NCBI GenBank assembly: GCA_964628295.1 | Contig: CAZVLS010000001.1 | Span: 10,250 to 74,249 of the forward strand | Source: an uncultured Acidobacterium sp. | Lineage (GTDB): Bacteria > Acidobacteriota > Vicinamibacteria > Vicinamibacterales > UBA2999 | Direction of reading: 5' to 3' | Length of the DNA stretch: 64,000 nt | Shown: piece by piece, positions 3,654 to 53,027 of the stretch | How positions within the stretch are numbered: position 1 is the stretch's first letter | Layout of the letters: the number at the start of each line of letters is the position of its first letter | Position numbers and translations under genes: made by a program | The notes under the pieces: model-generated | What the model saw: the letters and a program-made list of their open reading frames with translations, nothing else | What the model was told of the DNA's origin: nothing | The model's database searches: none

Positions 3654-4406
3654 GTGTCCATGACCAGGCCGGTACTCGGACTTCTCGCAGGCGGTGTGCT
3701 CGGGTTGATCGACGGAATGTCGGCGTGGTTCTACCCCGAGGCGCGCGCGATGATGGTGCCGATCGTGATCGGATCGACCATCAAGGGCCTGTTCACCGGA
3801 CTCGCCGTCGGACTCGTCGCACGGTGGAAGCAGTCGGCGCCGCTCGGCATGCTGACCGGGGCGGTCGTCGGATTCATCCTGAGCAGCCTGGCCGCCATCG
3901 GCCAGCCAGACCAGTACTGGGTTATCGTCCTCCCTGGCATGTTCGTCGGAATCATTGCGGGAGTCCTGGCGCAACGCGGCCGCAGCGCCGCGACGGCTCT
4001 CTGCTTTGCCGTGATGCTCCCCATCGGGCTCTCCGCTCAGCAAGCGGCCCCGCCGTCACCGCTGAGCGCGGTGCAGCCGTTCGTCGGCAAATGGGCGGGC
4101 ACATCGGAAGGCCAGCCGGGCACGGGCACGCTGACGCGTGAGTATCGGCTGATCCTGCGCGATCGCTTTCTCGAGGAAACCAATCGCAGCGTCTACCCCG
4201 CCCAGGACAAGAATCCCAAGGGCGAGACCCACGAGCACCGCAGCTTCTTCAGCTTCGATCGCGCGCGGAACATTCCGAACGGCTATCGCGCGCGCGAAAC
4301 CTACACCTTCATCAATCCGAACGAGTTCGAGGAAGTGTTCGAGATTGCCGAGCCCGGCAAGGAATTCGAGCTGTACTCGCGAGCCCGCCTGAGACGAGTT
4401 CCGTGA
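3654..4406 (+). CDS. hypothetical membrane protein with a C-terminal soluble (beta-barrel-like) domain
   Basis: The N-terminal ~110 aa form about 4 hydrophobic helices. An internal signal-peptide-like segment (ALCFAVMLPIGLSAQQ) follows, then a hydrophilic domain (FVGKWAGTSEG...). The family assignment is only a resemblance. Confidence 0.5.
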   Translation: MSMTRPVLGLLAGGVLGLIDGMSAWFYPEARAMMVPIVIGSTIKGLFTGLAVGLVARWKQSAPLGMLTGAVVGFILSSLAAIGQPDQYWVIVLPGMFVGIIAGVLAQRGRSAATALCFAVMLPIGLSAQQAAPPSPLSAVQPFVGKWAGTSEGQPGTGTLTREYRLILRDRFLEETNRSVYPAQDKNPKGETHEHRSFFSFDRARNIPNGYRARETYTFINPNEFEEVFEIAEPGKEFELYSRARLRRVP

Positions 4407-11384: not shown

Positions 11385-11390
11385 AACAGA

Positions 11391-11523
11391 GGGTTCCAAG
11401 GGTTCCAAGCGTTCCAGTGGTTCCAAAGGCAGCGTTCTATCGGGGTTCCAGGGTCTCAGAACCTGAGGAACAGCGACAGAACGATGCCATTGGAACCGCT
11501 GGAACCTTTGGAACCCTGGAACC
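11391..11523. repeat. inverted 9-mer arrays (GGTTCCAAG family) forming a ~130-nt imperfect hairpin
   Basis: Left arm gggttccaagggttccaagcgttccagtggttccaaagg. Right arm ccattggaaccgctggaacctttggaaccctggaacc. A T-rich tract follows, then ATG 11533. Confidence 0.9.
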
Positions 11524-15428: not shown

Positions 15429-15488
15429 GGGCCAGCGGGCCAGCGGGCTAGCGGGCTAGCGGGCTAGCGGGCTAGCGGGCTAGCGGGC
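15429..15488. repeat. tandem 8-mer array GGGCYAGC, about 7.5 units (reverse complement of the 8545 array)
   Basis: gggccagc x2 then gggctagc x5, period 8. Fills the whole spacer between two minus-strand genes. Confidence 0.9.
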
Positions 15489-15490
15489 AA

Positions 15491-16162
15491 TCAGGAAAGG
15501 GTGAATTCGAGTGTGAGGCCGCTGACGTCGATCCGATCGCCGCTCAGAAGATCGCGCCGGCCGGTGACTTTCTCGCCGTTCACCATCACGGTGGCGCTCA
15601 TCGGCGTAATGGAAAAGCCTTCGCCCTTGCGCGCGATGGCGGCGGCCACCTTCGGCTTGAACCAACCCTTCAGGCGAATCTGCGCGTTGTCCGCAGTGCC
15701 AATCATCGTCGTGACGGCGGCGAGGATGTATTCGCTTTGCCCGGTGCTGCCCGAGACGACCTTGATCGTCCCGATCCGTCCCTGCGCGGTGGGAATGGCC
15801 GTCTTTGGCACCACCGGTTCGTAGACCTGCGACGGCCGGCCCTGCGGAAGACCCGTGAGCACGGGGTCCTGCACGCCCCGGTCGGTGAACACCATCGTGT
15901 GCTTGCCGACCAGCACCACGTCGCCTTCGAGCAGGGTGTGGCGGGCGATGGGCTTGTCGTTGACGAAAGTGCCGTTGGTGCTCTTCAGGTCTTCGAGCAC
16001 GAAGTGATTGCCCTCGCGATAGACACGGGCGTGTCGTCCAGACACCGCCGGGTTGTCGATGACGACGTCGTTGTCCGGCAGGCGGCCGATCGACACCGGG
16101 ACCGAACCGACGACGCAGTCCTTCAGCTCGCGCTCCTCGAACTTGAGGGTCAGTTTCGCCAT
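15491..16162 (-). CDS. FHA-domain protein (N-terminal FHA plus second FHA-like module)
   Basis: ATG 16162. Motifs GRLPDNDVVIDNPAVSGRHARV and STNGTFVN. Its start lies 1 nt after the PP2C stop. Confidence 0.85.
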   Translation of the reverse strand: MAKLTLKFEERELKDCVVGSVPVSIGRLPDNDVVIDNPAVSGRHARVYREGNHFVLEDLKSTNGTFVNDKPIARHTLLEGDVVLVGKHTMVFTDRGVQDPVLTGLPQGRPSQVYEPVVPKTAIPTAQGRIGTIKVVSGSTGQSEYILAAVTTMIGTADNAQIRLKGWFKPKVAAAIARKGEGFSITPMSATVMVNGEKVTGRRDLLSGDRIDVSGLTLEFTLS

Positions 16163-16163
16163 A

Positions 16164-16949
16164 TCAGAATCCCACGATGTTCCGCGCGACGTCGCGCCAC
16201 CCGGATGCCCGGACTTCGACGACCACCACGGTGATGTTGTCGGGGCCGCCCGCCTCATTTGCGGCGTCGACCAGGTAATCGCAACACGCCTGGGGCGCAC
16301 CCGCAAAGCGCTTCAACGCCGCCGCCAGCCGATCGTCGCTGACCATTCGCGTCAGCCCGTCGGTGCAGAGCAGCAAGCGATCACCTGCAGCAACTACGGA
16401 TTCGCTCAACTCCACCTGCACGTCCGGATCGCGTCCGAGCGCGCGCAGCAAGATGTTCTGCTGCGCCGACTTGAGACTCTGCTCCCGATCGATCAGCCCG
16501 GCCTGGACCTGTGCTTCGACAAGAGAGTGATCGGTGGTCAGCGCCTCGAAACCGGTGCCGTCACACAAATAGACGCGGCTGTCACCAACGTGCGCGATGC
16601 TGGCCAGGCCGTCGGCGAGCCAGACCCCCACCACCGTCGTCCCCATACCCGCATGCTCGGGGTCGCTCTTGGCGCGATCGATGATCGCGAGATTGGCTTC
16701 CTCCAGCGCTCGACCCAGCAGCGCGGTCCGAGGCTGGAAGCCTCGCTCCGTCGATCCGTTCCGCGGACCGTGCGTGACAAACGCGCCAATGGTCTCGACC
16801 GCCAGCTGGCTGGCCACTTCGCCCGCGGCGGCGCCACCCATGCCGTCGCAGACCACGAACACTCCGCGGTCGGCGTGCGCGAGGTATGCATCCTCGTTGA
16901 TGGGGCGGACCCGTCCAATGCTGGTCGCCGCACCAACCTTCAGCCGCAT
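16164..16949 (-). CDS. PP2C-family Ser/Thr protein phosphatase (Stp1-like)
   Basis: Motifs NEDAY, VCDGMGG, HVGDSR and CTDGL. Confidence 0.9.
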   Translation of the reverse strand: MRLKVGAATSIGRVRPINEDAYLAHADRGVFVVCDGMGGAAAGEVASQLAVETIGAFVTHGPRNGSTERGFQPRTALLGRALEEANLAIIDRAKSDPEHAGMGTTVVGVWLADGLASIAHVGDSRVYLCDGTGFEALTTDHSLVEAQVQAGLIDREQSLKSAQQNILLRALGRDPDVQVELSESVVAAGDRLLLCTDGLTRMVSDDRLAAALKRFAGAPQACCDYLVDAANEAGGPDNITVVVVEVRASGWRDVARNIVGF

Positions 16950-16967
16950 TGGAGGTATTCTCTCCGG

Positions 16968-17372
16968 ATGAATTGGCTGGTCAAGGAAGAACCGGAGAAC
17001 TATTCCTACTCACAGTTTGCGTCGGACAAGACCACCGTCTGGGCCGGCGTGAAGAATCCCGTGGCACAGCGCAACCTGCGCGAGATGAAGAAAGGCGACC
17101 GCGTCTTCTTCTACCACACGGGCAAAGACAAGGCGATCGTCGGTACTGCCACCGTGGCGAAGACTGCGTACGAGGATCCCAAGGACAAGACCGGCAAGCT
17201 GGTCGTCGTGGAACTCGCGGTGGGCAAGGCCCTGAAGCGCCCCGTGACGCTCGCCGAGATCAAGGCGGACAAGCGTTTTGCGACCATGCCGCTGGTGCGC
17301 ATTGCGCGGCTGTCAGTGCAGCCGGTGACGGACGAACAGTGGGAGTGGATCGAAGGAATCAGCAAGCACTAG
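16968..17372 (+). CDS. EVE (PUA-like) domain protein
   Basis: MNWLVKEEPENYSY...WAGVKNPVAQRNLREMKKGDRVFFYHTG is typical of the EVE/thymocyte-nuclear-protein fold. Confidence 0.8.
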   Translation: MNWLVKEEPENYSYSQFASDKTTVWAGVKNPVAQRNLREMKKGDRVFFYHTGKDKAIVGTATVAKTAYEDPKDKTGKLVVVELAVGKALKRPVTLAEIKADKRFATMPLVRIARLSVQPVTDEQWEWIEGISKH

Positions 17373-19222
17373 GACTTCCCGATCGAATCGAGGACGTCCC
17401 AACGCTCCATCGCCGCCAGTAGTTCCTCGTCGATCTTCGCCACACGATCCACGGTGGCTTTGATGTCGGAGCCGGGCTTCGTATAGAAGCCCGGATCTGC
17501 GAGCGATGCATTCAGCTGCTTCTGCTCTTCTTCCAGCGCGGCGATGCGACCGGGGAGCTCTGCGTACTCACGCTCTTCTTTGAACGAGCGCTTCTTCTTG
17601 CTCTTCCCGCTGCCCGTGGCGTCTTTTGTGAGCCCGGTCGTGTCTTTGGCGTTCCCCGGCGCGTTCCTGGTGTTCCCCGGCCCGCCCTTCGCTCCCCCCG
17701 CGGCCTTCTGCCGGAGGTAATCTTCATACCCGCCGACGTACTCCTCCACTCGTCCGCCGCCTTCAAACGCGATCGTGCTCGTGACCACGTTGTCGAGGAA
17801 GCGGCGATCGTGGCTCACCAGCAGCAACGTGCCGGGCCATTCCACGAGCTGCTGCTCCAGCAACTCCAGCGTTTCGAGATCGAGATCGTTGGTCGGCTCG
17901 TCGAGGACCAGCGTGTTGGCGGGACGCGTCAACAATCTCGCCAGGAGCAGGCGATTGCGCTCGCCGCCCGACAAGGCGCGCACGGGCGACCGCGCGCGTT
18001 CGGGTGAAAACAGGAAATCCTGCAGGTAGCCCATCACGTGGCGCGGCTGGCCGTTGATGGTGACGGTATCGCTGCCGTCGCCGATCGTGTCGACAACGGT
18101 GCGATCGGGATCGAGCTGCTCGCGCTGCTGATCGTAATAAGCGATCTGCACGTTCGCGCCGCGGCGCACGTTCCCGCTCGTCGGCGCCAACTCGCCCAGC
18201 AGCAATCGCAACAGCGTCGTCTTGCCGGCGCCATTGGGGCCGATCAGCCCGATGCGGTCGCCGCGCATGATGCGGGTGGAAAAATTGGCAACTGTCCATC
18301 CCTGTGGCGACGAGCCTTCAGGCTCGCTGACGCCATAGCCGAAGCTCACATTCTCCGCTTCGAACACCATCTTCCCGGATGAGTCCGCCGAATCCATCGA
18401 CAGCTTCACCTGGCCGGCGCGTGACCGGCGCTCCAATCGTTCGGCGCGCATCTGCATCAGCGCCTTGACGCGGCCTTCGTCGCGTGTGCGGCGAGCTTTC
18501 ACGCCGCGGCGCAACCAGACTTCTTCCTGCGCCATCTTCTTGTCGAAGCGGGCGTTCTGCAGTTCTTCGTTCGCCAGCCATTCCTCTTTCTTGCGCTCGA
18601 ACGTTGCGTAGTCACCCGGCCACGACGTCAGCCGGCCGCGATCGAGTTCGACGATGCGAGTGGCGAGGCGCTCGAGGAAGGCGCGGTCGTGGGTCACGAA
18701 TACCACGGCGCCGCGGTACTCCGCGAGGAACGACTCGAGCCAGGCGATGGCCTCGATATCGAGGTGGTTGGTGGGCTCGTCAAGCAGCAGTAGATCCGGC
18801 GCGCCCACCAGCGCGCGCGCCAGCAGCACGCGGCGCTTCCAGCCGCCAGACAGCGAGTCGACAATCGCCTCGGGGGGCAGCGAGAGCCGGGTCATCACCA
18901 TGTCCGCCTGGTGGTGCCGCTGCCATTCGTCGTGCGGATCGAGTTCGCCAAGTCCCTCACCGACAACCGTGGCGACGGTCCGGTCCGCCGACAGCGGCAC
19001 GTCCTGCACGAGCCGCGCGACCCGCACACCAGGCTGGCGAAGCACCACACCGGAGTCTGGTGGGAGGTCCCCTGACAGGATCTGCAACATCGTGGACTTA
19101 CCTGTGCCGTTGCGTCCAATCACGGCAACCCGTTCGCCGGGTTCAATTTGAAAGGCGGCGTTATCGAGCAGCGGGAGGTGTCCGAAAGCGATGGACACCT
19201 GGTCGAGCGTCACGAGCGGCAT
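17369..19222 (-). CDS. uup: ABC-F family ATPase, Uup-like
   Basis: Two ABC cassettes ([18 protein letters not shown]; LSGG signatures), an inter-domain linker and a C-terminal coiled-coil DNA-binding-type tail. Confidence 0.85.
   Translation of the reverse strand: MPLVTLDQVSIAFGHLPLLDNAAFQIEPGERVAVIGRNGTGKSTMLQILSGDLPPDSGVVLRQPGVRVARLVQDVPLSADRTVATVVGEGLGELDPHDEWQRHHQADMVMTRLSLPPEAIVDSLSGGWKRRVLLARALVGAPDLLLLDEPTNHLDIEAIAWLESFLAEYRGAVVFVTHDRAFLERLATRIVELDRGRLTSWPGDYATFERKKEEWLANEELQNARFDKKMAQEEVWLRRGVKARRTRDEGRVKALMQMRAERLERRSRAGQVKLSMDSADSSGKMVFEAENVSFGYGVSEPEGSSPQGWTVANFSTRIMRGDRIGLIGPNGAGKTTLLRLLLGELAPTSGNVRRGANVQIAYYDQQREQLDPDRTVVDTIGDGSDTVTINGQPRHVMGYLQDFLFSPERARSPVRALSGGERNRLLLARLLTRPANTLVLDEPTNDLDLETLELLEQQLVEWPGTLLLVSHDRRFLDNVVTSTIAFEGGGRVEEYVGGYEDYLRQKAAGGAKGGPGNTRNAPGNAKDTTGLTKDATGSGKSKKKRSFKEEREYAELPGRIAALEEEQKQLNASLADPGFYTKPGSDIKATVDRVAKIDEELLAAMERWDVLDSIGKS
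17597..17680 (-). repeat. four in-frame tandem 21-nt units inside uup
   Basis: Minus-strand units ccggggaacaccaggaacgcg / ccggggaacgccaaagacacg / accgggctcacaaaagacgcc / acgggcagcgggaagagcaag encode PGNTRNA PGNAKDT TGLTKDA TGSGKSK. Confidence 0.75.
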
Positions 19223-19230
19223 GAGCCCTT

Positions 19231-19282
19231 CAGGCTATCAGGCTTTCAGGCCCACAGGCGAATAGGCCAACAGGCCAACAGG
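19231..19282. repeat. tandem 8-mer array CAGGCNNN, about 6.5 units
   Basis: caggctat caggcttt caggccca caggcgaa taggccaa caggccaa cagg, located between divergent start codons. Confidence 0.85.
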
Positions 19283-19303
19283 ATTTGGTATTCTGCGGGC
19301 CTT

Positions 19304-20713
19304 ATGAAACTCGCCGCACGCGCAACGCTCGCCCTGCTCGTCATTTCCCTCACCGAAGTCACCGGCGCGCAACAGGCCGGCAATGCGGCCATCGAGGCGG
19401 AGACGATCCAGCATTTCCAGGCGCTGTTGAGGCTCGATACCAGCAGCCCTCCGGGCAACGAGACCCGCGCCGTCGAATACCTGAAGCAGGTGTTCGACAA
19501 GGAAGGCATTGCCAACCAGGTGTTCGCGAAGGACAAGACGCGCGCCAACTTCGTCGCCCGCATCAAGGGCAACGGCAAGAAGCGCCCGATCCTGATCATG
19601 GGCCACACCGACGTCGTCACGGTCGATCCGGCGAAGTGGACGCATCCCCCGTTCGGCGCGGTGCGTGACGGCGGCTACGTGTATGGACGCGGCGCGGTCG
19701 ACGACAAGGACAACCTCGTTGCCGGCGTGATGCTGATGCTGATGCTGAAGCGTCAGAACGTGCCGCTCGATCGCGACGTGATCCTGCTGGCCGAGGCCGG
19801 CGAAGAAGGCGCGCCTGATGTGGGCGCGCAGTTCATGGCCGACAATCATCTCGACGCCATCAACGCGGAGTACTGCCTCGCCGAAGGCGGCGGCGTGGTG
19901 CGTCAAGGTGGGCAGGTGCGCCAGGCGAACATCGGCACGACCGAGAAGGAGCCGCGCTTCGTCGAGATCATCGCGCGCGGTCCGGCGGGTCACGGTTCGG
20001 TGCCCTCGCGCAACAATGCGGTCACCAAGCTGTCGGCGGCCGTCGGGAAGATCGCGACCTGGACGCCGCCGCTTCGCATCAACGAAACGACCGGCGCGTA
20101 CTTCAAGAAGCTCGCGACGATGGTGCCGGCTGATGTCGCCAGGATGTACCGCGACATCCTGAGCCCCGATCCGAAGGTCAACAAGGCGGCAGCGGATTGG
20201 CTGCTCGAGAACCAGCCGAATCACTGGTCGATGGTGCACACCTCGCTCGTGCCGACGATCATCGACGGCGGCTTCCGCTATAACGTGATCCCGTCCGAGG
20301 CCAAGGCGACGGTCGATGTGCGCCTGCATCCGGATGAGGATCAGAACGCATTCCTCGACCTGGTCCGCAAGGTCGTCAACGATCCGTCGGTGGAAGTACG
20401 CTGGGGCCGCGAGCGCTACCGGCCGGCCGGTGGCGCGAAGATCGACACCGAGGCATTCGCGGTCCTCGAGGCGCAGACGAAGAAGCACTACAACACGGTG
20501 GTGCTGCCCACCATGGGCACGGGTGCGACGGACATGTCGAACCTGCGCGCGAAGGGCATCCAGTGCTACGGCATTGGGCCGGCGCTTGATTCGGAAGACA
20601 GCGGCAAGGGCTTCGGCGCGCACAGCGACCAGGAGCGCATTCTCGAGTCCGAGCTGCACCGTTTCGTCCGGTTTCAATACGACGTAGTGGTCGAGCTGGC
20701 TCGCGCGAAGTAA
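19304..20713 (+). CDS. M20/M25/M40 family metallopeptidase with signal peptide
   Basis: Motifs MGHTDVV, GRGAVDDKD and LAEAGEEG, plus a signal peptide ending AQQ. Confidence 0.85.
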   Translation: MKLAARATLALLVISLTEVTGAQQAGNAAIEAETIQHFQALLRLDTSSPPGNETRAVEYLKQVFDKEGIANQVFAKDKTRANFVARIKGNGKKRPILIMGHTDVVTVDPAKWTHPPFGAVRDGGYVYGRGAVDDKDNLVAGVMLMLMLKRQNVPLDRDVILLAEAGEEGAPDVGAQFMADNHLDAINAEYCLAEGGGVVRQGGQVRQANIGTTEKEPRFVEIIARGPAGHGSVPSRNNAVTKLSAAVGKIATWTPPLRINETTGAYFKKLATMVPADVARMYRDILSPDPKVNKAAADWLLENQPNHWSMVHTSLVPTIIDGGFRYNVIPSEAKATVDVRLHPDEDQNAFLDLVRKVVNDPSVEVRWGRERYRPAGGAKIDTEAFAVLEAQTKKHYNTVVLPTMGTGATDMSNLRAKGIQCYGIGPALDSEDSGKGFGAHSDQERILESELHRFVRFQYDVVVELARAK

Positions 20714-20767
20714 AGTCGGCTACGGAAGAGCTTAAGGGAGGCGGCGGCGGAGCTATCATTCTTCGCC

Positions 20768-21697
20768 GTGCCTCTTAACCGCGGGTGGTCGTATCGCGAA
20801 CAGGTCGGGCCTGACAGCGCAGGCCAGACCGTGTTGTCCTACCTCACCGCCACCCGCCTGCATTCCACGGAAACAGAATGGGCCGCGCGCATCGAGCGCG
20901 GCGAGGTCGAAGTCGAGAACACGCGCGTGCGTGGCGACTTCGTGCTGCACGCGGGACAGACCGTCGTCTGGAACCGTCCCCCCTGGGACGAGCCGTCGGC
21001 GCCGGCGCACTTCGACATCATTCACGAAGACGACGACATCCTCGTCGTCAACAAGCCGAGCGGCCTCCCGACGATGCCGGCGGGCGGCTATCTGGATCAG
21101 ACGTTGCTGGCGCTGGTACGGCAGCAGTACACCGGCGCGAGCCCGCTGCATCGGCTGGGTCGTCACACCTCAGGACTGGTCCTGTTCGCACGTACACCTG
21201 ACGCCGCGTCGCGGCTGGCGCGCGCGTGGCGCGAACACCGTGTCAAGAAGACCTATCGCACCATCGGCCTCGGCTCGACGAGGGCGGAGATGTTCGTGAT
21301 CGACGTGCCGATCGGCCCGGTGGCGCATCCGCTGATCGGCACGGTGCAGGCGGCGTGCGAAGACGGCAAGCCGTCACACAGCGTCGCGATGGTGCTCGAG
21401 ACGCGGCACGACCAGACGCTGTTCAGCGTCGAGATTGCGACCGGCCGGCCGCATCAGATTCGTATTCACATGGCCTATGCCGGCCATCCGCTGGTTGGCG
21501 ATCCTATTTACGAAGCGGGCGGCGGATTGAAGCGGCACCCGGGACTACCGGGCGATGGCGGCTACCAACTGCACGCCGAGCGCCTGCAGTTCCTGCATCC
21601 GATCAGCGGCCAGCGCATGAGCGTGACCGCCACTCCTCCGCCCGAGTTACAGACGCACAAGGAGCTCGTCGCCGCCGGCAGCGCGATGACGCGCTGA
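20768..21697 (+). CDS. RluA-family pseudouridine synthase
   Basis: GTG start. Motifs VVNKPSGLP, HRLGRHTSGLVLFA and the C-terminal HQIRIHMA. Confidence 0.9.
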   Translation: MPLNRGWSYREQVGPDSAGQTVLSYLTATRLHSTETEWAARIERGEVEVENTRVRGDFVLHAGQTVVWNRPPWDEPSAPAHFDIIHEDDDILVVNKPSGLPTMPAGGYLDQTLLALVRQQYTGASPLHRLGRHTSGLVLFARTPDAASRLARAWREHRVKKTYRTIGLGSTRAEMFVIDVPIGPVAHPLIGTVQAACEDGKPSHSVAMVLETRHDQTLFSVEIATGRPHQIRIHMAYAGHPLVGDPIYEAGGGLKRHPGLPGDGGYQLHAERLQFLHPISGQRMSVTATPPPELQTHKELVAAGSAMTR

Positions 21698-21700
21698 GTA

Positions 21701-21945
21701 GTCCACAGAATCAATCCACGGATTACACGGATTGCGCGGATAAGAATTCTGCCACCGAGGCACAGAGACTCAGAGCTGCGACGGCGCTGGGCGGCGTAGC
21801 CGCCGGCAGCGTCGATGAGCCCGGAATCACAAGCCTGGAAGACTCTCGGCTGGCTTGTGATCCCTGGCTCATCGACGCTGCGAGCGCGCGAGCAACGCTC
21901 GCGCTGCGCCGTCCACCATCCGTGTCATCCGTGTAATCCGTGGAC
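21701..21945. repeat. composite nested palindromic element, copy E1 (~245 bp)
   Basis: Outer 9-mer arms (cacggatta family), a cacagagg module, a GC stem and a central hairpin gatgagcccggaatcacaagcc/ggcttgtgatccctggctcatc. It is the reverse complement of the copy at 24411-24647. Confidence 0.9.
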
Positions 21946-21952
21946 CAAGTCC

Positions 21953-23179
21953 TTACTGTGAGTGACCGCGCGCTGTGATCTCCCACACGGCTTCGACGCG
22001 ATCGTTGCGAATCGCATACATGTAGTCGTAGAGATTCACGGCCGGATCGCAGTGCGGGACGATCAGCTCCATGCGGTCGCCCATCTTCCACTCCTTGCGG
22101 GCTTCCTTGAAGGTGATCGAGCCGAATTCGTCCGAGCCGGCGTTGTAGTCGAACCCCGGCTCGCCAATCACGCCGGCGCGCGGGACGTTGATCGTTAAGG
22201 CTTTTGCGCCGGCATCAGTCGTCAGTCGACCGGGGAATCGATTGTTCACAACGGTGGCGAGCACCGTCAGCGACGGCTCGAAGTCGTCATACACCGGCTG
22301 CCCGTCGGCGTTGCCGATCGCGATGTACTGCATGTCCATGAAGATGTAGCTGCCGGCCTGCACGTCGGTGAAGCCAGGGACCAGGTGATAGATGTTGTAG
22401 GTCCCGGTGCCGCCGCCGCTGAAGATCTCGGTGTTGAGACCGCTCTGCTTCATCTTCTGCTGCGTGCGCGCGTTCTCTTCGATCGCGGCGAGCGCACGCT
22501 CCTTTCGCGTCGCGAACCCAGCGATGTGCTGCGCCCCGCCGTCGTAGGACAGCATGCCGCGCAATTTCAGGTTCGGCTGCTTGTCGACGAGCTGCGCGAG
22601 CTTGATGGCCTCCTCGCCCGGAGGAATGCCGCTGCGCGTGCCGACCGCCACGTCAATCACCACGTCGGCAATCACGCCGGCTTCTTTCGCCGCGGCATCC
22701 AGGTCGAGCGCGTTCTGGTCGTAGTCAACGGCCTGCACGAATCCCGGGAAACGCTTCTTCAGCTGCATGGCCCGGCGGATCTTCACCGGCGGCAGGTTGC
22801 TCGTCGTCATCAGCATCTTCTCGATGCCGGCCTCGAGCAGCGCCTCGGCCTCGCTCAGCTTCGCGGCGCACAGACCGAGCGCACCGGCCGCCATTTGCAG
22901 CTTGCCGATGGCGGCGCATTTATGGGTCTTGGCGTGCGGGCGCACGCCGATCTTGTTGGCGTTTGCGGTGCGCTGCATCTTGGCGATGTTGCGCTCCAAC
23001 TTATCGAGGTCGACACACAGAGCCGGCGTCTCGAGTTCCGCCTTCGAGATGCCGGCCTTGTGCGGCGTGACCGGCCCCAAGATCTCTTCAGCGGTGTAGC
23101 CCTTCACCGGCTTGGGAATCCACACATGGGCGGCTGCTGCAGCTGACGCTCCGACGAACGCGCGACGGGTTGGCTTCAT
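21953..23179 (-). CDS. DSD1/D-threonine-aldolase-like PLP enzyme (alanine-racemase-fold) with Tat signal
   Basis: PLP-lysine box RPHAKTHK. Tat motif TRRAFVGAS from ATG 23179. The ORF-track start 23236 is a GTG lying inside repeat E3. Confidence 0.8.
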   Translation of the reverse strand: MKPTRRAFVGASAAAAAHVWIPKPVKGYTAEEILGPVTPHKAGISKAELETPALCVDLDKLERNIAKMQRTANANKIGVRPHAKTHKCAAIGKLQMAAGALGLCAAKLSEAEALLEAGIEKMLMTTSNLPPVKIRRAMQLKKRFPGFVQAVDYDQNALDLDAAAKEAGVIADVVIDVAVGTRSGIPPGEEAIKLAQLVDKQPNLKLRGMLSYDGGAQHIAGFATRKERALAAIEENARTQQKMKQSGLNTEIFSGGGTGTYNIYHLVPGFTDVQAGSYIFMDMQYIAIGNADGQPVYDDFEPSLTVLATVVNNRFPGRLTTDAGAKALTINVPRAGVIGEPGFDYNAGSDEFGSITFKEARKEWKMGDRMELIVPHCDPAVNLYDYMYAIRNDRVEAVWEITARGHSQ

Positions 23180-23216
23180 GCGGCGCAGTATATCGCCGCA
23201 GGGCTTAGAGGGTTCG

Positions 23217-23311
23217 CCACCGAGACACAGAGGCACGGAGACAAGGGCGACGGCGGCTGCGCCGCCTGGCGCCGTCTGACTGCATTTCTCTATGTCTCTG
23301 TGCCTCTGTGG
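23217..23311. repeat. mini palindromic element E3 (cacagagg arms plus GC stem)
   Basis: Left arm ccaccgagacacagaggcacggagacaaggg, stem cgacggcggctgcgccgcctggcgccgtc, right arm ...tctctatgtctctgtgcctctgtgg. Matches an internal module of E1 and E2. Confidence 0.85.
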
Positions 23312-23327
23312 CCAATAAACTTTAGAG

Positions 23328-24410
23328 ATGGCCTTAACGAACTACATCACTCTTGGGCGGTCCGGGCTGCGCGTCAGCCCGTTCTGCCTCGGCACCATGA
23401 CCTTCGGCGAGGACTGGGGATGGGGATCAACAGTCGCCGAATCCGAATCGATCCTCCGGCACTTCCTCGAACGCGGCGGCAACTTCATTGACACTGCGAA
23501 CGGCTACACGAAAGGTCACTCCGAAGTGATCATCGGTGACTACTTCGCGCGCGAGAAGAACCGCGACCGCATGGTCCTCGCAACCAAGTTCAGCACCAAC
23601 CTTTACCTGGGCGATCCGAATGGCGGCGGAGCCAGCCGGAAGACGATCGTCGAGTCATGCGAGCAGTCGTTGCGGCGGCTGAAGACGGATTACATCGACC
23701 TCTACTGGATGCATTTCTGGGATCCGCATACGCCCATCGACGAGACGATGCGCGCCCTTGATGATCTGGTGCGGGCCGGCAAGGTGCGCTACATCGGCGC
23801 GTCGGACACGCCGGCCTGGAAAGTGACGCAAGGCAACATGCTCGCGCAGTTCCAGGGCTGGACGCCGTTTGTCGGCCTGCAGATCGAATACTCGCTGATC
23901 GAGCGCACGGTCGAGGGCGAGCTGATGCCAATGGCGCGCGAACTGGGTCTGGGCGTCACGCCGTGGTCACCACTGCGAGGCGGCGTGTTGTCGGGTAAGT
24001 ACACGCGCGCCAACGCTGCCGAGGCGAAGCCCGATCGCGGCGAACGCGTGAAGACGTTCCTCAATGAACGCAACCTGACGATCATCGACGAGCTGATCCG
24101 CATCGGCGACGAGCTCAACGCCTCGCCGGCAAGCATCGCGCTGGCGTGGGTGCAGTCGCGGCCCGGCGTGACGTCCACGATCATCGGCGCGCGCCGGCTG
24201 GATCAACTCGAGCAGAATCTCGCCGCGCTCGATGTGGCGCTGAGGCCCGACGACGTCGAGAAACTCAACAAGCTGTCGGAGCCCGCGCTGAACTTCCCGG
24301 CGCCGTTCTTCCGCATGATCCCGATGTTTGCCAACGGCGGCACGACCATCAATGGCGCAACGTCGGCGCCGTGGCCGTTGATGCCGAAGACTGACGCCGA
24401 GAGGTATTAG
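23328..24410 (+). CDS. aldo/keto reductase
   Basis: Motifs GLRVSPFCLGTMTFG, FIDTANGY, DLYWMH and YIGASD. Confidence 0.9.
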   Translation: MALTNYITLGRSGLRVSPFCLGTMTFGEDWGWGSTVAESESILRHFLERGGNFIDTANGYTKGHSEVIIGDYFAREKNRDRMVLATKFSTNLYLGDPNGGGASRKTIVESCEQSLRRLKTDYIDLYWMHFWDPHTPIDETMRALDDLVRAGKVRYIGASDTPAWKVTQGNMLAQFQGWTPFVGLQIEYSLIERTVEGELMPMARELGLGVTPWSPLRGGVLSGKYTRANAAEAKPDRGERVKTFLNERNLTIIDELIRIGDELNASPASIALAWVQSRPGVTSTIIGARRLDQLEQNLAALDVALRPDDVEKLNKLSEPALNFPAPFFRMIPMFANGGTTINGATSAPWPLMPKTDAERY

Positions 24411-24647
24411 GTCCACGGATTACACCGATTGCACGGAATGAGCGACGGCGCCAGCGCGAGCTGCGCTCGCGCGCTCGCGGCGCCGATGAGACCGGAATCG
24501 CAAGCCGTCGAGATACTGCATCGGCTTGTGATTCCGGTCTCATCGGCGCTGCAGGCGGCTCCGCCGCCTGCGCCGTCTTGCCGTTTTCTCTGTGCCTCTG
24601 TGCCTCTGCGGCCAATCCAATCCGTGGAATCCGCGTAATCCGTGGAT
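24411..24647. repeat. composite nested palindromic element, copy E2 (~237 bp, inverted relative to E1)
   Basis: Starts the base after the stop codon. Aligns along its whole length with the reverse complement of 21701-21945, roughly three quarters identical by eye. Confidence 0.9.
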
Positions 24648-24671
24648 GAAATGTTACGCTTGTAGGTTCCC

Positions 24672-26309
24672 ATGATCGCGTTCGCCAACGTCAACAAGCA
24701 GTACGGCAAGCAAATCCTCTTCGTCGATGCCTCCTTCCAGCTCAATCCTGGTGAGAAGGCCGGGCTCGTCGGTCCCAACGGCGCCGGCAAGACCACCGTG
24801 TTCCGAATGATCACCGGCGAGGAAGCCCCGGATGACGGCGAGGTCACGGTGCCGAAGAAGCTGACGGTTGGCTACTTCCGGCAGGACGTGGAAGAGATGT
24901 CTGGCCGCTCGGTTCTCGATGAGGCGATCGCCGGCAGCGGCCGCGTGGGCGACCTGCATCATGAACTCGAAGAGTTGAACCAGGCGATGTCGGATCCGGC
25001 GCAGGCCGACGACATGGACAAGATCCTCGCGCGGTTTGGCGAGGTGCAGGAAGAGTACGACCACCTCGGTGGCTACGCGCTCGAAAGCCAGGCGCGCGAA
25101 GTGCTCCACGGGCTCGGGTTTGACGACGAGCGGATCGATGGTGATGTCGGCGCGCTGTCAGGCGGCTGGAAGATGCGCGTGGCGATGGCCCGCGTGCTGC
25201 TCGGCAAGCCCGACGTCCTGCTGATGGACGAACCGACCAACCACCTCGACATCGAATCGATCATCTGGCTCGAGAGCTTCCTCAAGCAGCACGACGGCGC
25301 GCTGCTGATGACGTCACACGACCGCGAGTTCATGAATCGCATCGTGTCGAAGATCTGCGAGATCGACGGCGGCGAGATCACCGTCTACTCGGGCAACTAC
25401 GACTTCTACGAGCGCGAACGCGCCACGCGCGAAGCGAATCGCGAGGCCGCTTACGCGCGCCAGCAGGCGATGCTCGCCAAGGAACAGCGCTTCATCGAGC
25501 GCTTCAAGACCCACGCCGCCAAGGCCGCGCAGGTGCAGAGCCGCATCAAGGCGCTCGACAAGATCGAGAAGATCGAACTGCCGAAGCGCCGCACGGTCGT
25601 GAAGTTCGACTTCCGGGACCCGCCGCGCTCGGGCGACCAGGTCGCCGTGATCGAGAACCTGTCGAAGGCCTACGGCAAGCGCGTGATCTACGACGACTTC
25701 AGCCTGACGATTCGCCGCGGCGAACGCTGGGCCGTGATGGGCCGCAACGGCGCCGGCAAGACAACGCTGCTGAAGATCCTGTCAGGCAACCTCAAACCGG
25801 ATGCGGGCGACGTGCGCTTGGGCGCGAGCTTGAAGATGGGCTACTTCGCGCAGCAGTCGCTCGACACGATGGACGCCGACCTCACCATCATCGACCAGCT
25901 GCAGAACGACTTCCCGCGCGAGGGGCTCGGCGCGCTGCGCTCGTTGGCCGGCGCGTTCCAGTTTTCCGGCGAAGACATCGACAAGAAGATTCGTTCGCTC
26001 TCAGGCGGCGAGAAGTCGCGTCTCGCCATGGCGCGCATGCTGTTCGATCCGCCGAACTTCCTCGTGCTCGACGAGCCGACCAACCACCTCGATCTGGCGA
26101 CCAAGGAGATGCTCGTCGATTCGCTGAAGGCGTTCGAAGGCACGATGATCTTCGTGTCGCACGATCGCGCGTTCCTGCGCGGGCTGAGCAATCGTGTGCT
26201 TGAACTCGGTGGTGAGAGCGGCACCGATTCGACGCCGAACGCCTACCCGGGGACCTACATCGAGTACGTGGATCGCACGGGGCACGAGGCGCCGGGAATT
26301 CATTCGTAG
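24672..26309 (+). CDS. ABC-F family ATPase (YbiT/EttA-size class)
   Basis: Two cassettes ([18 protein letters not shown]), LSGG signatures and no TM domain. Confidence 0.9.
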
Positions 26310-28634: not shown

Positions 28635-29885
28635 ATGAAACAAGTCATCGCGCTCGCGCTCAAGGATCTGCGGCTGATGCCGCGCAACAAGGGCGGCATG
28701 TTCTTTACGTTTGCCTGGCCGATCATTGTCACCGTGCTGTTCGGGTTTGCCTTTGGCGGCAACACTCGCGATGGCGAGCAGGGCAAGGTGCAGATTGCGC
28801 TCGTTGACGAAGACAACACCGACGGTTCGCGCGCGTTTGCGAAGAAGCTCGAGGAGTCATTCGAGCTGACGCCGATGGCGCGCGAGGATGCGGCCAACGC
28901 CGTGCGTCGCGGCAATCGTACCGGCTACATCGTGCTGACGAAGGGATTTGGCGCCGCGTCGGACCGGATGTTCTACGGCGATTCGCGCCAGGTGGAGGTC
29001 GGCGTCGATCCGGCGCGTCGGGCCGAGGCGGCGATGATCGAAGGAATGCTGATGAAGCACGCCTCGTCTGACATGCAGAAGATGTTCACCGATCCGCAGG
29101 CGTCATCGCGCATGGTGGACAAGGCGCTCGGTGACATGCAGGGGGCCGGGCCCGAAGTCGCACCCGTGCAGCGTTTCCTGGGCGAACTGAAGACGTTCAC
29201 GTCCACGCCTCAGTCGCCGGGCGCTCCGGCGCAGAACGGCCAGTGGCAGCCGTTGAAGATCGTGACCAACGACGTGCGACGCGTGTGGAATGGTCCGGCC
29301 AACGCATTCGACATCACGTTTCCGCAGGGCGTGATCTGGGGATTGATCGGCTGCATGATGACCTTCGGCATCAGCATGGTCACCGAACGCACCCACGGCA
29401 CGCTCGTGCGGCTGCGGATGGCGCCGCTGACGCGCGCGCAGATCCTGGGCGGCAAGGCGCTGTCGTGTTTCCTGTCGATCATGCTGGTCGAACTGGTGCT
29501 GCTCGGCGTGGCGTTCAGTCTCGGCGTGCGTCCGGTCTCGATGCCGATCCTGGCACTGGCCGGCGTCTCCGCCGCGATCTGCTTCGTGGGCTTCATGATG
29601 CTGGTGGCGAGCCTCGGCAGGACCGAACAGACCGCATCCGGCGCGGCGTGGGCGATCCTGATGCCGCTGTCGATGTTCGGCGGCGCGATGGTGCCCACGT
29701 TCGTGATGCCGGCCTGGATGCAGTCGATCGGCCAGATCAGCCCGATCCGCTGGGCGATGCTCGCGATCGAAGGTGGCGTGTGGCGCGACTTCTCGATCGC
29801 TGAAATGGCGCTCCCCTGCAGCATCCTGATCAGCGTCGGCCTCATCTGCTTCGCGCTGGGGACGAGGGGATTGAAGGAAGCGTGA
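28635..29885 (+). CDS. ABC-2 type transporter permease
   Basis: N-terminal TM helix, a large extracytoplasmic loop and a C-terminal bundle of 5 TM helices. Adjacent to the ATPase. Confidence 0.8.
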   Translation: MKQVIALALKDLRLMPRNKGGMFFTFAWPIIVTVLFGFAFGGNTRDGEQGKVQIALVDEDNTDGSRAFAKKLEESFELTPMAREDAANAVRRGNRTGYIVLTKGFGAASDRMFYGDSRQVEVGVDPARRAEAAMIEGMLMKHASSDMQKMFTDPQASSRMVDKALGDMQGAGPEVAPVQRFLGELKTFTSTPQSPGAPAQNGQWQPLKIVTNDVRRVWNGPANAFDITFPQGVIWGLIGCMMTFGISMVTERTHGTLVRLRMAPLTRAQILGGKALSCFLSIMLVELVLLGVAFSLGVRPVSMPILALAGVSAAICFVGFMMLVASLGRTEQTASGAAWAILMPLSMFGGAMVPTFVMPAWMQSIGQISPIRWAMLAIEGGVWRDFSIAEMALPCSILISVGLICFALGTRGLKEA

Positions 29886-29954
29886 AGTAGCAAGATGCAA
29901 GTAGCAGGTGGCAGGAAAAGCACTTCTTGATACTTGCTACTTGCTACTTGATAC
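29886..29954. repeat. inverted heptamer arrays (AGTAGCA / TTGCTAC) forming a hairpin
   Basis: agtagca agatgca agtagca ggtggca ... ttgatac ttgctac ttgctac ttgatac. Starts the base after the stop codon. Confidence 0.9.
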
Positions 29955-29963
29955 TGTCTGGGC

Positions 29964-33923: not shown

Positions 33924-34035
33924 GAGGGTAATAAAGGTTATAAAAAGTTATAAAGGGTTACAGAGGTTACGCGATTCAACCCCTGTAACCCTTGTAACCC
34001 TTGTAACCCTTGTAACCCTTGTAACCGTTGTAACC
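33924..34035. repeat. inverted 9-mer arrays (GGTTAYAAA / CCCTTGTAA) forming a ~110-nt hairpin
   Basis: The right arm is cccttgtaa x4-6 with exact period 9. The left arm is a degenerate complement. Starts the base after the stop codon and ends 7 nt before GTG 34043. Confidence 0.9.
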
Positions 34036-48220: not shown

Positions 48221-50161
<1,941 letters not shown>

Positions 50162-51951: not shown

Positions 51952-52068
51952 CGACGACAAACACGAAGGACACGAAGGACACGAAGGCTGCTTTGGAAAA
52001 TGTCAGTGCTGCTAAGCGGCACTTGTATTTTCCAGACTTGGCTTCGTGCCCTTCGTGTCCTTCGTGTT
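51952..52068. repeat. inverted 9-mer arrays (ACACGAAGG / CCTTCGTGN) forming a ~115-nt hairpin between convergent genes
   Basis: acacgaagg x3 on the left and cttcgtg x3 with period 9 on the right. The centre carries ggaaaatg.../...attttcc. Confidence 0.9.
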
Positions 52069-52073
52069 TATCC

Positions 52074-53027
52074 TCAGCCGCTGCAAACGAACAGATTCCC
52101 AAACTGCCGACACTGTGTCGTCGCTGCTAGTACTTGCTGGTAGTACGGGATTGCAGAAAAATCCGTCACCGCAACGACGTCCGTACCTCGCGCGACGGGG
52201 CTGACGCGAATCGACGCGTCGTAGCCTTCGGCCGGGCCGATCTTCCTGAACAGTGTGGCGCCGTAGTTGTCGCACGGCAGGACCAACCGCACTGGGCGCG
52301 GCAGCTCAGGGATCTGCCGTCTCACATAGCGAAGCTTCGCTTCGATCGTGCGTGCCTGCTGTTCTGATCGGCGGGCGCTGCTCGACTGATCCGCGTGCAC
52401 GCGATAGTCATAGAGACGATCGGGCAGCTTGGCGATCCCGTGATCGGGGAGCAATCGCAACCACAGGTCGTAGTCTTCCGCAGGAACGGTGGCCGGATTG
52501 TAGCCACCGGCGCGTAGCGCTACCGCCGTGCGCATCATCACCGAGCCGTGCGCGATGCAGCACGTGAGCGGCATCATCGCGAGGATCTGTTCAGGCGTCT
52601 GCGCCGGATCCTGCTGCTCGCGGACCGTCTGCGTCCATCCGTCAATCACCTCGATGCCATCGCCGTCGATGAAGCCGACGCACGTGCCGAGGACCGCGAT
52701 GCCCGGGTTGGCGTCCAGGAACTCGACCTGCCTCGCAAATCGATCCGGCGCCGACCGGTCGTCGGCATCGTGACGGGCCACGTATTGCCCTCTTGCCTGG
52801 GCGAGGCCGATGTTCAGTGAGCGCGCGAGGCCAATGCTGCCTGGCGACAACACGCGTAGGCGCGAATCAGCAACCGCCCGCAGGTAGTCGGCCGTGCCAT
52901 CGGTGCTGCCGTTGTTGATCACAAGCAGCTCGAAGTCGGTGAACGACTGCGTGAGGATGCTCTCCACCGCCTGCGGCAAGTACGGCATGCCGTTGCGAAC
53001 CGGCAGGAGGACGGAGAGGCGCGTCAT
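52074..53027 (-). CDS. family 2 glycosyltransferase
   Basis: LSVLLPVRNGMPYLPQAVESILTQSFTDFELLVINNGSTDGT, then the DADD motif. ATG 53027 overlaps the upstream stop (ATGA). Confidence 0.85.
   Translation of the reverse strand: MTRLSVLLPVRNGMPYLPQAVESILTQSFTDFELLVINNGSTDGTADYLRAVADSRLRVLSPGSIGLARSLNIGLAQARGQYVARHDADDRSAPDRFARQVEFLDANPGIAVLGTCVGFIDGDGIEVIDGWTQTVREQQDPAQTPEQILAMMPLTCCIAHGSVMMRTAVALRAGGYNPATVPAEDYDLWLRLLPDHGIAKLPDRLYDYRVHADQSSSARRSEQQARTIEAKLRYVRRQIPELPRPVRLVLPCDNYGATLFRKIGPAEGYDASIRVSPVARGTDVVAVTDFSAIPYYQQVLAATTQCRQFGNLFVCSG

Follow-up and report, generated by a model that had tools for sequence, protein, structure and literature searches.

Extragenic palindromes of the REP, BIME, REPIN and MITE types are, to our knowledge, well studied in Proteobacteria and hardly in Acidobacteriota, Planctomycetota, Calditrichota, Spirochaetota or Bacteroidota. 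REP-type families normally stay within one lineage. REP, BIME and REPIN sequences are repetitive extragenic palindromes that occur in mosaic clusters, and REP doublets are mobilised by RAYT transposases (Bertels & Rainey 2011, PMC3116915; Di Nocera et al. 2013, PMC3733652). The GGGAATC and GGGGA(C/T)T repeats of Xanthomonas and Nostoc have been proposed to form G-quadruplexes (Rehm et al. 2015, PMC4692102).

Here we analyse three palindromic elements, E1, E2 and E3, of an uncultured Acidobacterium sp.; the window is the whole stretch of DNA that was analysed, 64 kb in length. A sequence-only reading had described E1 and E2 as inverted copies of a nested palindrome that bracket a two-gene module, with E3 as a smaller copy between the two genes, and had offered a MITE-like family, a structured RNA and a module bounded like a composite element as explanations.

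Results

E1 and E2 align as reverse complements over their whole length, and their likeness exceeds the roughly three quarters estimated by eye in the sequence-only reading: E1 and the reverse complement of E2 (E2 arms 24412-24646) agree at 197 of 237 aligned bases (83%), with a score of 269 against 26 +/- 7 for shuffles. Stems are 80-100% identical, loops and linkers only 43-60%. Because the 83% identity includes unpaired linkers, and because E3 is 82% identical to part of E2, the elements are copies of one another rather than products of convergence. The four parts that had been named, i.e. the 9-mer arms, the CACAGAGG 8-mer module, the GC stem GACGGCGC/GCGCCGTC and the central hairpin, all lie where they had been placed; two small GC hairpins beside the central one, A (GGCGGC..GCCGCC) and B (GCGAGCGCGCGAGC..GCTCGCGC), had been missed.

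From the outside inwards, an element consists of an outer stem of 9-mers (core CACGGAT), an optional shell of tandem 8-mers (core CACAGAG), and a GC stem closing a three-way junction, in which two short GC hairpins accompany a long one with the conserved apex CACAAGCC/GGCTTGTG (Table 1). The terminal inverted repeats are 27-nt arms that are 85-89% complementary, with variable unit number and linker bases; in E1 the arms span 21715-21944 while degenerate outer units begin at 21701. A full copy folds into a long stem of tandem 9-mers around the GC stem and the three hairpins at about -150 kcal/mol (E1, -149.5 kcal/mol, z = -10.6; E2, -158.3 kcal/mol, z = -12.2, against shuffles). No ORF lies within the 240-nt elements and no promoter-like site was found in them; on both strands, E1, E2 and E3 lack a U-tract and any terminator-like site. 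None of the motifs was found elsewhere in the window, which holds 2.5 copies in 64 kb.

Table 1. Positions of the elements, their parts and the flanked genes in the window
Feature	Position	Strand	Details
E1, full nested palindromic element	21701..21946	.	CM R1 core match 21776-21917, 136 bits
E1 left arm	21715..21741	+	three tandem 9-mers TCCACGGAT TACACGGAT TGCGCGGAT; partner 21918-21944, 89% complementary
E1 one-sided 8-mer-word module	21751..21775	+	GCCACCGAGGCACAGAGACTCAGAG; no partner arm within E1
E1 core	21780..21913	+	GC stem 21780-21787 / 21906-21913 around three hairpins
E1 hairpin A	21789-21804	+	inside GC stem
E1 central hairpin	21805-21835 / 21852-21881	+	apex CACAAGCC..GGCTTGTG
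E1 hairpin B	21882-21905	+	inside GC stem
E1 right arm	21918..21944	+	ATCCGTGTC ATCCGTGTA ATCCGTGGA; pairs with left arm
DSD1-like PLP enzyme gene	21953..23179	-	Ala_racemase_N + D-ser_dehydrat, Tat-like N-terminus; flanked gene, outside element
E3, partial element	23216..23312	.	8-mer-word arms 23216-23243 / 23287-23312, GC stem, hairpin A 23249-23276
Aldo/keto reductase (AKR) gene	23328..24410	+	flanked gene, outside element
E2, full element inverted relative to E1	24411..24647	.	CM R1, 137 bits
E2 left arm	24412..24438	+	tandem 9-mers; partner 24620-24646
E2 core	24444..24577	+	GC stem 24444-24451 / 24570-24577 around three hairpins
E2 hairpin B	24453-24476	+	inside GC stem
E2 central hairpin	24477-24506 / 24523-24552	+	inside GC stem
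E2 hairpin A	24554-24568	+	inside GC stem
E2 one-sided 8-mer-word module	24588..24612	+	CTCTGTGCCTCTGTGCCTCTGCGGC

E1 and E2 are located at putative 3' ends of transcription units. E1 fills the gap between the convergent stops of a pseudouridine synthase gene (21695-21697) and the DSD1-like gene (21953-21955), and E2 begins directly after the AKR stop (24408-24410), with its far end 25 nt upstream of an ABC-F start (24672). E3, with its 8-mer-word arms around the GC stem and hairpin A, was correctly recognised as lying between the divergent starts of the DSD1-like gene (ATG 23180, minus strand) and the AKR gene (ATG 23328), where it is bounded by -10-like hexamers of the former (23187-23192) and the latter (23316-23321); its right half repeats E2 24549-24616 directly at 82% identity. 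The DSD1-like and AKR genes are ordinary metabolic genes of a soil acidobacterium.

The family extends beyond this locus, contrary to the first condition (occurrence at these loci only) under which the sequence-only reading said that a MITE-like or functional view would fail. Homologous elements are present in the Vicinamibacteria relatives L131 (two copies), L137, L138, L144 (two copies) and L104, the last in a different gene context. In L144 the core sequence is entirely replaced while the architecture is retained, and the core is flipped between the GC-stem arms when E1 of the window is compared with L131. The homologues of L137 and L138, like E3, are located between divergent gene starts. 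No element at all is found in L132, L133 and L141-L143. The four genes keep their order in L141-L143, yet each of the three gaps is empty there: they measure 36 nt, 50 nt and a 9-nt overlap, where the window has 262, 147 and 255 nt. Other relatives have an element in only a single gap. Genes and elements thus do not travel together, and the idea of a module bounded like a composite element is not borne out.

These relatives also give the order of events. At the orthologous position immediately upstream of ABC-F, L129 (internally deleted), L137 and L138 carry a copy too, and in these and the window the copy has the same orientation relative to ABC-F. Comparison with relatives shows this ABC-F-upstream copy, i.e. 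E2 and its counterparts in L129, L137 and L138, to be old; L131 probably has a counterpart as well. L132 and L137 have a common sequence immediately after the DSD stop, from which it follows that E1 is derived, and by the same comparison E1 is shown as an insertion where the DSD1-like and pseudouridine-synthase genes formerly overlapped. L129 and L141 have an alignable 50-nt gap without E3, and set against these relatives E3 is shown as a recent insertion into the 50-nt divergent promoter gap. Because E1 and E3 are each most similar to E2, the copies have spread locally. Losses are seen in L129/L130, where E1 was lost between GTAA microhomologies, leaving its last 8 nt TCCGTGGA and outer degenerate units (the GTAA before TCCGTGGA is part of the microhomology junction), and in L129, where the E2 core is deleted. 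Turnover consists of copying without target-site duplication and of loss by microhomology deletion at the hairpin foot (L129/L130) or by internal deletion (L129).

Pairing is strongly kept by compensatory change. Of the cells, 91.4% are paired against 82.7% in shuffles, and 23 pairs have changed on both sides, compared with 11.1 in shuffles (none of 500 as high as 23) and 6-7 in slid controls, so the compensatory substitutions proposed as a check of the stems are indeed present. In the lower central stem, 12/16 pairs are compensated; in the 9-mer arms, 13/26 pairs are invariant and 0 have changed on both sides. The stems diverge at a rate no higher than that of the flanking gene (nucleotide identity of DSD about 85%), which together with the retained pairing would also fit a structural element selected purely by the host. 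No strand-specific selection on RNA was detected: G.U and A.C mismatches are about equally frequent and the folding energies of sense and antisense strands show no bias. E1 has the same orientation to DSD as E2 has to AKR, and in both the sense strand folds slightly better. Rfam 15 gave no family at or above its gathering score, only generic miRNA-precursor noise below threshold, and hairpins sharing the arms lie in 12 convergent, 19 tandem and 9 divergent contexts, a match to random intergenic placement. Of the suggested structured RNA, the conserved pairing thus stands, but neither strand is favoured, no Rfam family matches, and convergent, tandem and divergent gaps are occupied alike.

Target-site duplications were found neither at E2 nor in any of 44 hairpins with the same arms in other phyla (0/44 at k = 2-8), the flanks of which tend to continue the palindrome. 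Inspection by eye gave no conserved 5' target tetranucleotide of the IS200/IS605 kind; a GTAG tag lies only beside the left end of E1 (21697-21700) and is absent at E2 and the homologues. There is no recombinase near the locus, no transposase with such ends was seen in the loci examined, and tblastn with a RAYT sequence found no match in the window or the loci examined, which is a weak negative. The proposal of a MITE-like family accordingly holds as to a family beyond the locus and presence or absence among close relatives, whereas the missing target-site duplication, transposase and sharp ends argue that this is not a classical MITE. A metagenome scan with the exact central-hairpin arm returned 8 matches, all chance single arms in coding-looking DNA; because the source species is absent from that collection, the scan is silent on copy number.

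Whereas the element core is lineage-specific, hairpins with the terminal 18-mer occur in at least eight phylum-level groups, at a genome GC of 30-70%. We tested this cross-phylum vocabulary for every word of the window, and it held only for CACGGATTA and CACAGAGG; the remaining words were not found again in 800 kb of loci. On viral contigs, CACAGAGG hairpins occur at 4-10 times the rate of permuted controls, and ACACGAAGG is no commoner than its permuted control. A Calditrichia MAG carries two elements of 210 and 239 nt (L033, L091) that share the arms and have a conserved cargo. No description of these words or hairpins emerged from the literature, whether searched by sequence string or by concept.

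Discussion

On balance, we favour a model whereby E1, E2 and E3 are copies, two full and one partial, of nested extragenic palindromes of a REP/BIME/REPIN-like type, specific to one lineage (Vicinamibacteria, Acidobacteriota), that are copied on hairpin DNA and probably form a barrier at transcript ends. Copying would take place by template switching during replication or by a putative trans-acting HUH-type enzyme. A transcript leaving the DSD1-like or AKR gene would carry at its end a hairpin of about -150 kcal/mol, which probably serves as a barrier or insulator there and blocks 3' exonucleases; such a role would account for the elements being tolerated or retained by the host. We note that two observations count against a role at transcript ends, namely the lack of a U-tract and the location of E3 and the L137/L138 homologues between divergent starts. 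The locus preserves a clean natural history, with an old copy, two derived copies, empty sites in the same synteny, slippage deletions and heavy compensatory change.

The main competitor, to which we give a modest chance, is that the elements are RNA structures working for the host, as bidirectional terminator or insulator, mRNA 3' stabiliser or ABC-F upstream regulator, and were multiplied by ordinary duplication with no mobility of their own. E1 and E2 begin 1-5 nt past stop codons and fill their gaps, the copy upstream of ABC-F is kept in one orientation in four loci (the window, L129, L137, L138), the orientation to DSD and AKR is the same with a slightly better-folding sense strand, and compensatory pairing is kept at a rate not above the divergence of the flanking gene. 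Such a function is harder to reconcile with the missing U-tract, with mismatches that show no strand bias, with arm-sharing hairpins placed as if at random between genes, and with L132, L133 and L141-L143, which manage without the element; between the divergent starts of E3 and L137/L138 there is nothing to terminate. A discrete gene for a structured non-coding RNA would likewise account for the very stable folds and the covariation, but appears very unlikely, given that both strands fold about equally well, that Rfam yields only sub-threshold miRNA-precursor noise and no promoter-like site was found, and that the element is dispensable in close relatives and has had its core entirely replaced in L144 under an unchanged architecture. 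Selection could instead act on the words and not on the hairpin, with the tandem 8-9-nt words forming a DNA- or RNA-level binding array for a putative conserved protein. The 9-mer arms, conserved without compensatory change, the same 18-mer in distant phyla and the excess of CACAGAGG hairpins on viral contigs all speak for it; yet other words of the window are not recurrent, unit number and linker bases of the arms vary, and we know of no candidate binding protein, which leaves this array improbable.

Two further readings treat the elements as conventional mobile DNA. The 27-nt inverted arms, the variable presence among relatives and the two Calditrichia elements with common arms and conserved cargo would suit a classical MITE, i.e. 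a DDE-transposase insertion sequence reduced by deletion, whose terminal inverted repeats would be the 9-mer arms, but target-site duplications are absent at E2 and, at any length from 2 to 8 nt, from all 44 hairpins, flanks tend to extend the palindrome instead of ending it, and no transposase with such ends was seen, so that we hold this origin to be quite improbable. Least credible is that E1 and E2 bound a composite-transposon-like or invertible module and mobilise or flip the DSD1-like/AKR pair. The inverted 240-nt repeats around a 2.46-kb two-gene segment invite this view; however, relatives with no element or an element in one gap have the same genes in the same place and orientation, the elements lack an ORF and a recombinase nearby, and, because both promoters are internal, a flip of the segment would switch nothing. 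Among candidate motifs, the CsrA GGA motif, omega-repressor heptads and integron attC sites were dropped for partial or inconsistent likeness, the DnaA box because TTATCCACG matches at some ends only, and an ABC-F leader or attenuator because L132, L133 and L141 lack the element.

The REP/BIME/REPIN-like model that we favour concerns one lineage. A broader possibility, less likely than not, is that hairpins with arms of tandem 8-9-nt words (7-nt cores CACGGAT and CACAGAG) are a hitherto undescribed extragenic class present across many bacterial phyla and the viruses of these, of which E1-E3 are the Vicinamibacteria version with a lineage-specific three-hairpin core; the class may be characterised by onion-shell nesting, a lack of target-site duplications and a purine-rich arm that always comes first. 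A word shared by so many phylum-level groups, where REP-type families keep to their lineage, points to an unknown conserved reader protein or to mobile DNA between phyla. If the class is real, a conserved trans-acting factor would read the words, or a mobile hairpin element would be exchanged between phyla, perhaps by phages.

How, then, do the elements compare with known systems? A composite transposon has transposase-encoding copies, which are not seen here, and the same genes stand in L141-L143 without elements. Kelchner and Wendel reportedly described, in 1996, small inversions and concerted change in chloroplast non-coding hairpins, and Ripley is said to have described template-switch mutation at quasi-palindromes in 1982; both offer, as analogy only, a possible mechanism for the core flip between E1 and L131 and for joint change of the arms. 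The cyanobacterial STRR heptamers reportedly described by Mazel et al. in 1990 and the Xanthomonas and Nostoc repeats resemble the arms: all are 7-9-nt words in tandem that are concentrated in non-coding DNA, no more than about 50 nt from gene ends, with variable unit number and the same word in distant taxa. Those repeats are one-stranded direct arrays, while here an inverted partner array turns the words into a hairpin stem.

In contrast to an intrinsic terminator, the GC-rich hairpins have no U-tract directly following. Hairpin clusters proposed as intrinsic terminators (PMC8355165) are closer, with adjacent hairpins downstream of a stop and no canonical U-tract, but they are unrelated local hairpins, whereas E1-E3 belong to a copied sequence family that also occupies divergent-promoter gaps. 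Bacterial MITEs (Correia/NEMIS, ERIC, RUP) share a length of 100-300 bp, terminal inverted repeats, intergenic position, insertion polymorphism and long hairpins when transcribed; they differ from the present elements, which have no target-site duplication, no cognate insertion sequence and no sharp ends. Compared with REP sequences, the elements lack the GTAG/CGTC tag and units of 20-40 nt, their arms are tandem 8-9-nt words, their hairpins are nested in shells and not set side by side, no RAYT was found by tblastn in the window or the loci examined (a weak negative), and the outer word is shared across phyla where REP families are usually species- or genus-specific. With REP, BIME and REPIN they nevertheless have in common that they are extragenic and imperfectly palindromic, lie near or touch stop codons, form multi-hairpin mosaics in more than one copy, vary among relatives and leave no target-site duplication, and the roles proposed for REP, termination and mRNA stabilisation, fit the position of E1 and E2.

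Architecture of the elements

All three elements (E1, E2 and E3) are copies from a single family. The two full copies, E1 and E2, are reverse complements over their entire length, with 197 of 237 aligned positions identical (83%) and a score of 269 vs 26 ± 7 in shuffled sequence, and each is an imperfect palindrome that forms one long folded structure (-149.5 kcal/mol, z = -10.6 for E1; -158.3 kcal/mol, z = -12.2 for E2). Their outermost layer consists of arms of three tandem 9-mers each (TCCACGGAT TACACGGAT TGCGCGGAT); inside these lie a single-sided run of CACAGAGG-type 8-mers and then a GC stem (GACGGCGC/GCGCCGTC) enclosing three adjacent hairpins, namely the short GC hairpin A, a long central hairpin with the apex CACAAGCC/GGCTTGTG, and the short GC hairpin B. 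The stems of E1 and E2 are 80-100% identical, their loops and linkers only 43-60%. The right half of the partial copy, E3, is a direct repeat of E2 24549-24616 (82%). Direct reading, repeat computation, alignment and folding thus bear out the three elements and the parts named in the sequence-only reading, although GC hairpins A and B were missing from its list. Window 15459-26092, which contains the elements, is matched at 100% identity by a contig from an independent Logan assembly.

Elements, neighboring genes and other tandem-word hairpins in the window
Feature	Position	Strand	Description
RluA-type pseudouridine synthase	20768-21697	+	
E1	21701-21946		full element; direct reading and repeat computation
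DSD1-like PLP enzyme (DSD)	21953-23179	-	Tat-like N-terminus
E3	23216-23312		hairpin; 8-mer-word arms around GC stem and hairpin A
Aldo/keto reductase (AKR)	23328-24410	+	
E2	24411-24647		full element, reverse complement of E1; direct reading and repeat computation
ABC-F ATPase	24672-26309	+	
Other-word hairpin	11390-11522		arms of tandem 8-9-nt words
Other-word hairpin	29885-29955		arms of tandem 8-9-nt words
Other-word hairpin	33925-34030		arms of tandem 8-9-nt words
Other-word hairpin	48455-48534		arms of tandem 8-9-nt words
Other-word hairpin	51953-52075		arms of tandem 8-9-nt words

Motif searches and a covariance model of the core found element motifs nowhere else in the 64-kb window; a hairpin at 1023-1107, whose 24-nt arms (CAGCGAGGAAGGCGTGAACGACCC) pair perfectly around a 37-nt loop, is a weak core-model match (22.6 bits, E = 0.07). 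Five further hairpins have the same architecture as the arms of E1/E2 but different words (GGTTCCAAG, AAGTAGCA, AAGGGTTAC, GAGTGCAGA, ACACGAAGG). At least four of the five, not counting that at 48455-48534 with its ambiguous gene context, begin 0-6 nt after a stop codon, and three of these also extend through their gap as far as the next gene. In the comparison loci and viral contigs, their words did not recur above controls.

The hexamers TATACT (23187-23192), TAAACT (23316-23321) and TACGCT (about 24651-24656) resemble -10 elements, lie 6-11 nt 5' of the DSD, AKR and ABC-F start codons, respectively, and are kept in five comparison loci (L129, L131, L132, L138 and L141), suggesting that these mRNAs are leaderless or nearly so and placing E3 between two such putative promoters, those of DSD and AKR. 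Orthologues of the DSD1-like protein (76-98% identity) number in the hundreds, several labelled Vicinamibacterales. The N-terminus of the protein, MKPTRRAFVGASAAAAA, is a twin-arginine-like signal, which is unusual in a family generally regarded as cytoplasmic.

Pairing is maintained by compensatory change

The stems of the element are kept paired. Alignment of six full elements gave a consensus fold of 79-82 pairs in which 91.4% of cells are paired, vs 82.7% in column shuffles. Compensatory substitutions, proposed as a check by the sequence-only reading, are abundant: 23 pairs are changed on both sides vs 11.1 ± 2.2 in shuffles, a number reached in 0 of 500 shuffles, and 6-7 in slid controls. 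The lower stem of the central hairpin has 12 of its 16 pairs compensated. The sequence of this stem has essentially been rewritten from one locus to another, and the apex is constant. The 9-mer arm helix has the opposite pattern, with conserved sequence and no compensatory changes. The core model also detects the elements of L144 and L104 as well as the second copy in L131, all outside its training set. E1 and the L131 element at the same site have the 8-mer run on the same side and cores in opposite directions; hence, core orientation relative to the shells is not fixed.

Gain and loss in relatives

We retrieved orthologous loci and read their intergenic gaps directly. In L141-L143, where DSD has 86% nucleotide identity to the window, gene order is kept (ABC-F, AKR, DSD, pseudouridine synthase) and all three gaps are element-free (36 nt, 50 nt and a 9-nt gene overlap vs 262, 147 and 255 nt in the window). 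AKR is missing from L132, as is any element, and from L137 and L138, which carry a full homologous element directly 5' of ABC-F, in the gap where the starts of ABC-F and DSD diverge. The sequence immediately after the DSD stop is common to L132 and L137; hence, the gene overlap is ancestral and E1 an insertion. The closest relative, L129 (92% nucleotide identity), has an element with its core deleted at the E2 position, no E3 (its 50-nt gap is alignable to that of L141) and, at the E1 position, only the stump cagTAAtccgtggattgattctgcggac, left by a deletion between GTAA microhomologies at the foot of the hairpin. In L131, one copy lies 3' of DSD and another upstream; the latter is cut by the contig end and is the copy most similar to the E1/E2 type of the window. 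In L144, a pair of elements keeps the family architecture with an unrelated core sequence, the two resembling each other at 85-86%, and L104, from another Vicinamibacteria MAG, has a family member between unrelated genes. The family thus reaches relatives and another genomic context. From these comparisons, we read the copy upstream of ABC-F as old, the inverted E1 and the partial E3 as derived local copies, and the losses of elements as slippage deletions.

The ABC-F/DSD gap of L133 contains another small tandem-word hairpin (3937-3990; GCCAATGGGCCAATAGGC / GCCTATTGGCC..), and this gap thus carries different word hairpins per lineage. The metagenome contigs L133 and L134 are otherwise collinear and differ, at L133 6695-7810, by a DDE_3 (IS630-type) transposase gene inserted between genes for an M20 peptidase and an EVE-domain protein.

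Tandem words recur across phyla and in viral contigs

The sequence of the outer arms is conserved, and the word they use reappears in other phyla. The terminal 18-mer TCCACGGATTACRCSGAT, scanned in one genome per species, occurs in at least 119 stretches vs ~70 by uniform-composition chance over the whole collection. Among the matches listed, nearly all are non-coding, as tandem CACGGATT-type units; 57 of 119 have an inverted partner arm within 450 nt; single genomes hold many (12 in a Calditrichia MAG, ~10 each in a Phycisphaerae MAG and a Spirochaetia genome); and they spread over Calditrichota, Planctomycetota, Spirochaetota, Bacteroidota, Verrucomicrobiota/Kiritimatiellota, Acidobacteriota, Gemmatimonadota and others, all of which argues against chance. 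These loci range from 30% to 70% GC, and the hairpins occur in at least eight phylum-level groups (L002-L120; e.g. L007 3675-3743, L019 7464-7620, L117 5616-5778). Likeness to E1/E2 is limited to the arms, extending to the adjoining CACAGAG-type run in four listed loci and never to the core. In viral contigs, CACAGAGGCACAGAGGCA occurs in 39 stretches vs 4 and 10 for permuted tandem controls, and 20 of 42 matches are accompanied by an inverted partner and so form CCACAGAGG...CCTCTGTGG hairpins, some of which enclose an inner GC hairpin.

Other tandem words are often nested within the 18-mer hairpins (GGGTTGATG in L019; CACAGAG and GTCAGTT in L117). Two elements of 210 and 239 nt in one Calditrichia MAG (L033 5319-5528, L091 5970-6208) have CACGGATTA arms and a conserved cargo (..CCTCGGAATGAC..GTCATTTCGAACG..) in common, and look MITE-like without a target-site duplication. 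At L112 1704-2088 (134-nt units) and L101 482-1104 (units of about 215-230 nt), each unit of a tandem array has a CACGGATT-type arm pair, indicating that the hairpin elements themselves were amplified. The intergenic regions of viral L194, L197 and L212 (IMG/VR sample 3300037461) consist of single-sided direct runs in which several purine-rich words are used (CACGAAGG, CACAGATGG, CGCAGAGA, CAGTGA..), and an inverted partner is lacking.

Nature of the elements

Altogether, copies come and go in intergenic gaps of any type, without target-site duplication. The 40 clear contexts of arm-sharing hairpins (12 convergent, 19 tandem, 9 divergent) are near random intergenic placement and show no tie to gene 3' ends. 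We somewhat favor a REP/BIME/REPIN-like family, whose copies might arise by template switching on hairpin DNA or by a HUH-type enzyme as yet unseen. No transposase or recombinase genes were found near the elements, and an approximate RAYT query had no match in the window or the compared loci. For the host, a very stable hairpin ending the DSD and AKR transcripts could act as a barrier or insulator; a canonical U-tract terminator is absent.

That the elements are mainly a host-functional RNA structure seems rather unlikely to us, and a word array binding a protein distinctly so. The search for target-site duplications suggested by the sequence-only reading turned up none at E2 or in 44 same-arm hairpins from other phyla, whose flanks tend to extend the palindrome (purine at -1, pyrimidine at +1), making a classical MITE very unlikely. 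An RNA gene is highly improbable: an Rfam search gave only sub-threshold, generic miRNA-precursor matches, no sigma-70-like promoter was detected at the elements, and the folding energies of the two strands differ by 1-5 kcal/mol. Strand specificity is further contradicted by about equal frequencies of G.U and A.C mismatches; among 19 arm-sharing hairpins between co-directional genes, sense folds better in 8 and antisense in 11. Finally, we give almost no credence to a composite or invertible module; the bounded two-gene module of the sequence-only reading fails because L141-L143 have the same genes with empty gaps, and the gene pair is therefore not carried by the elements.

What might be genuinely novel is the cross-phylum sharing of the arm word, which we regard as less likely than not. 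We found no description of these elements or arm words in the searchable literature; the nearest published systems are REP/BIME/REPIN elements (PMC3733652, PMC3116915), intergenic 7-nt tandem repeats such as GGGAATC (PMC4692102), and hairpin clusters proposed as terminators (PMC8355165).
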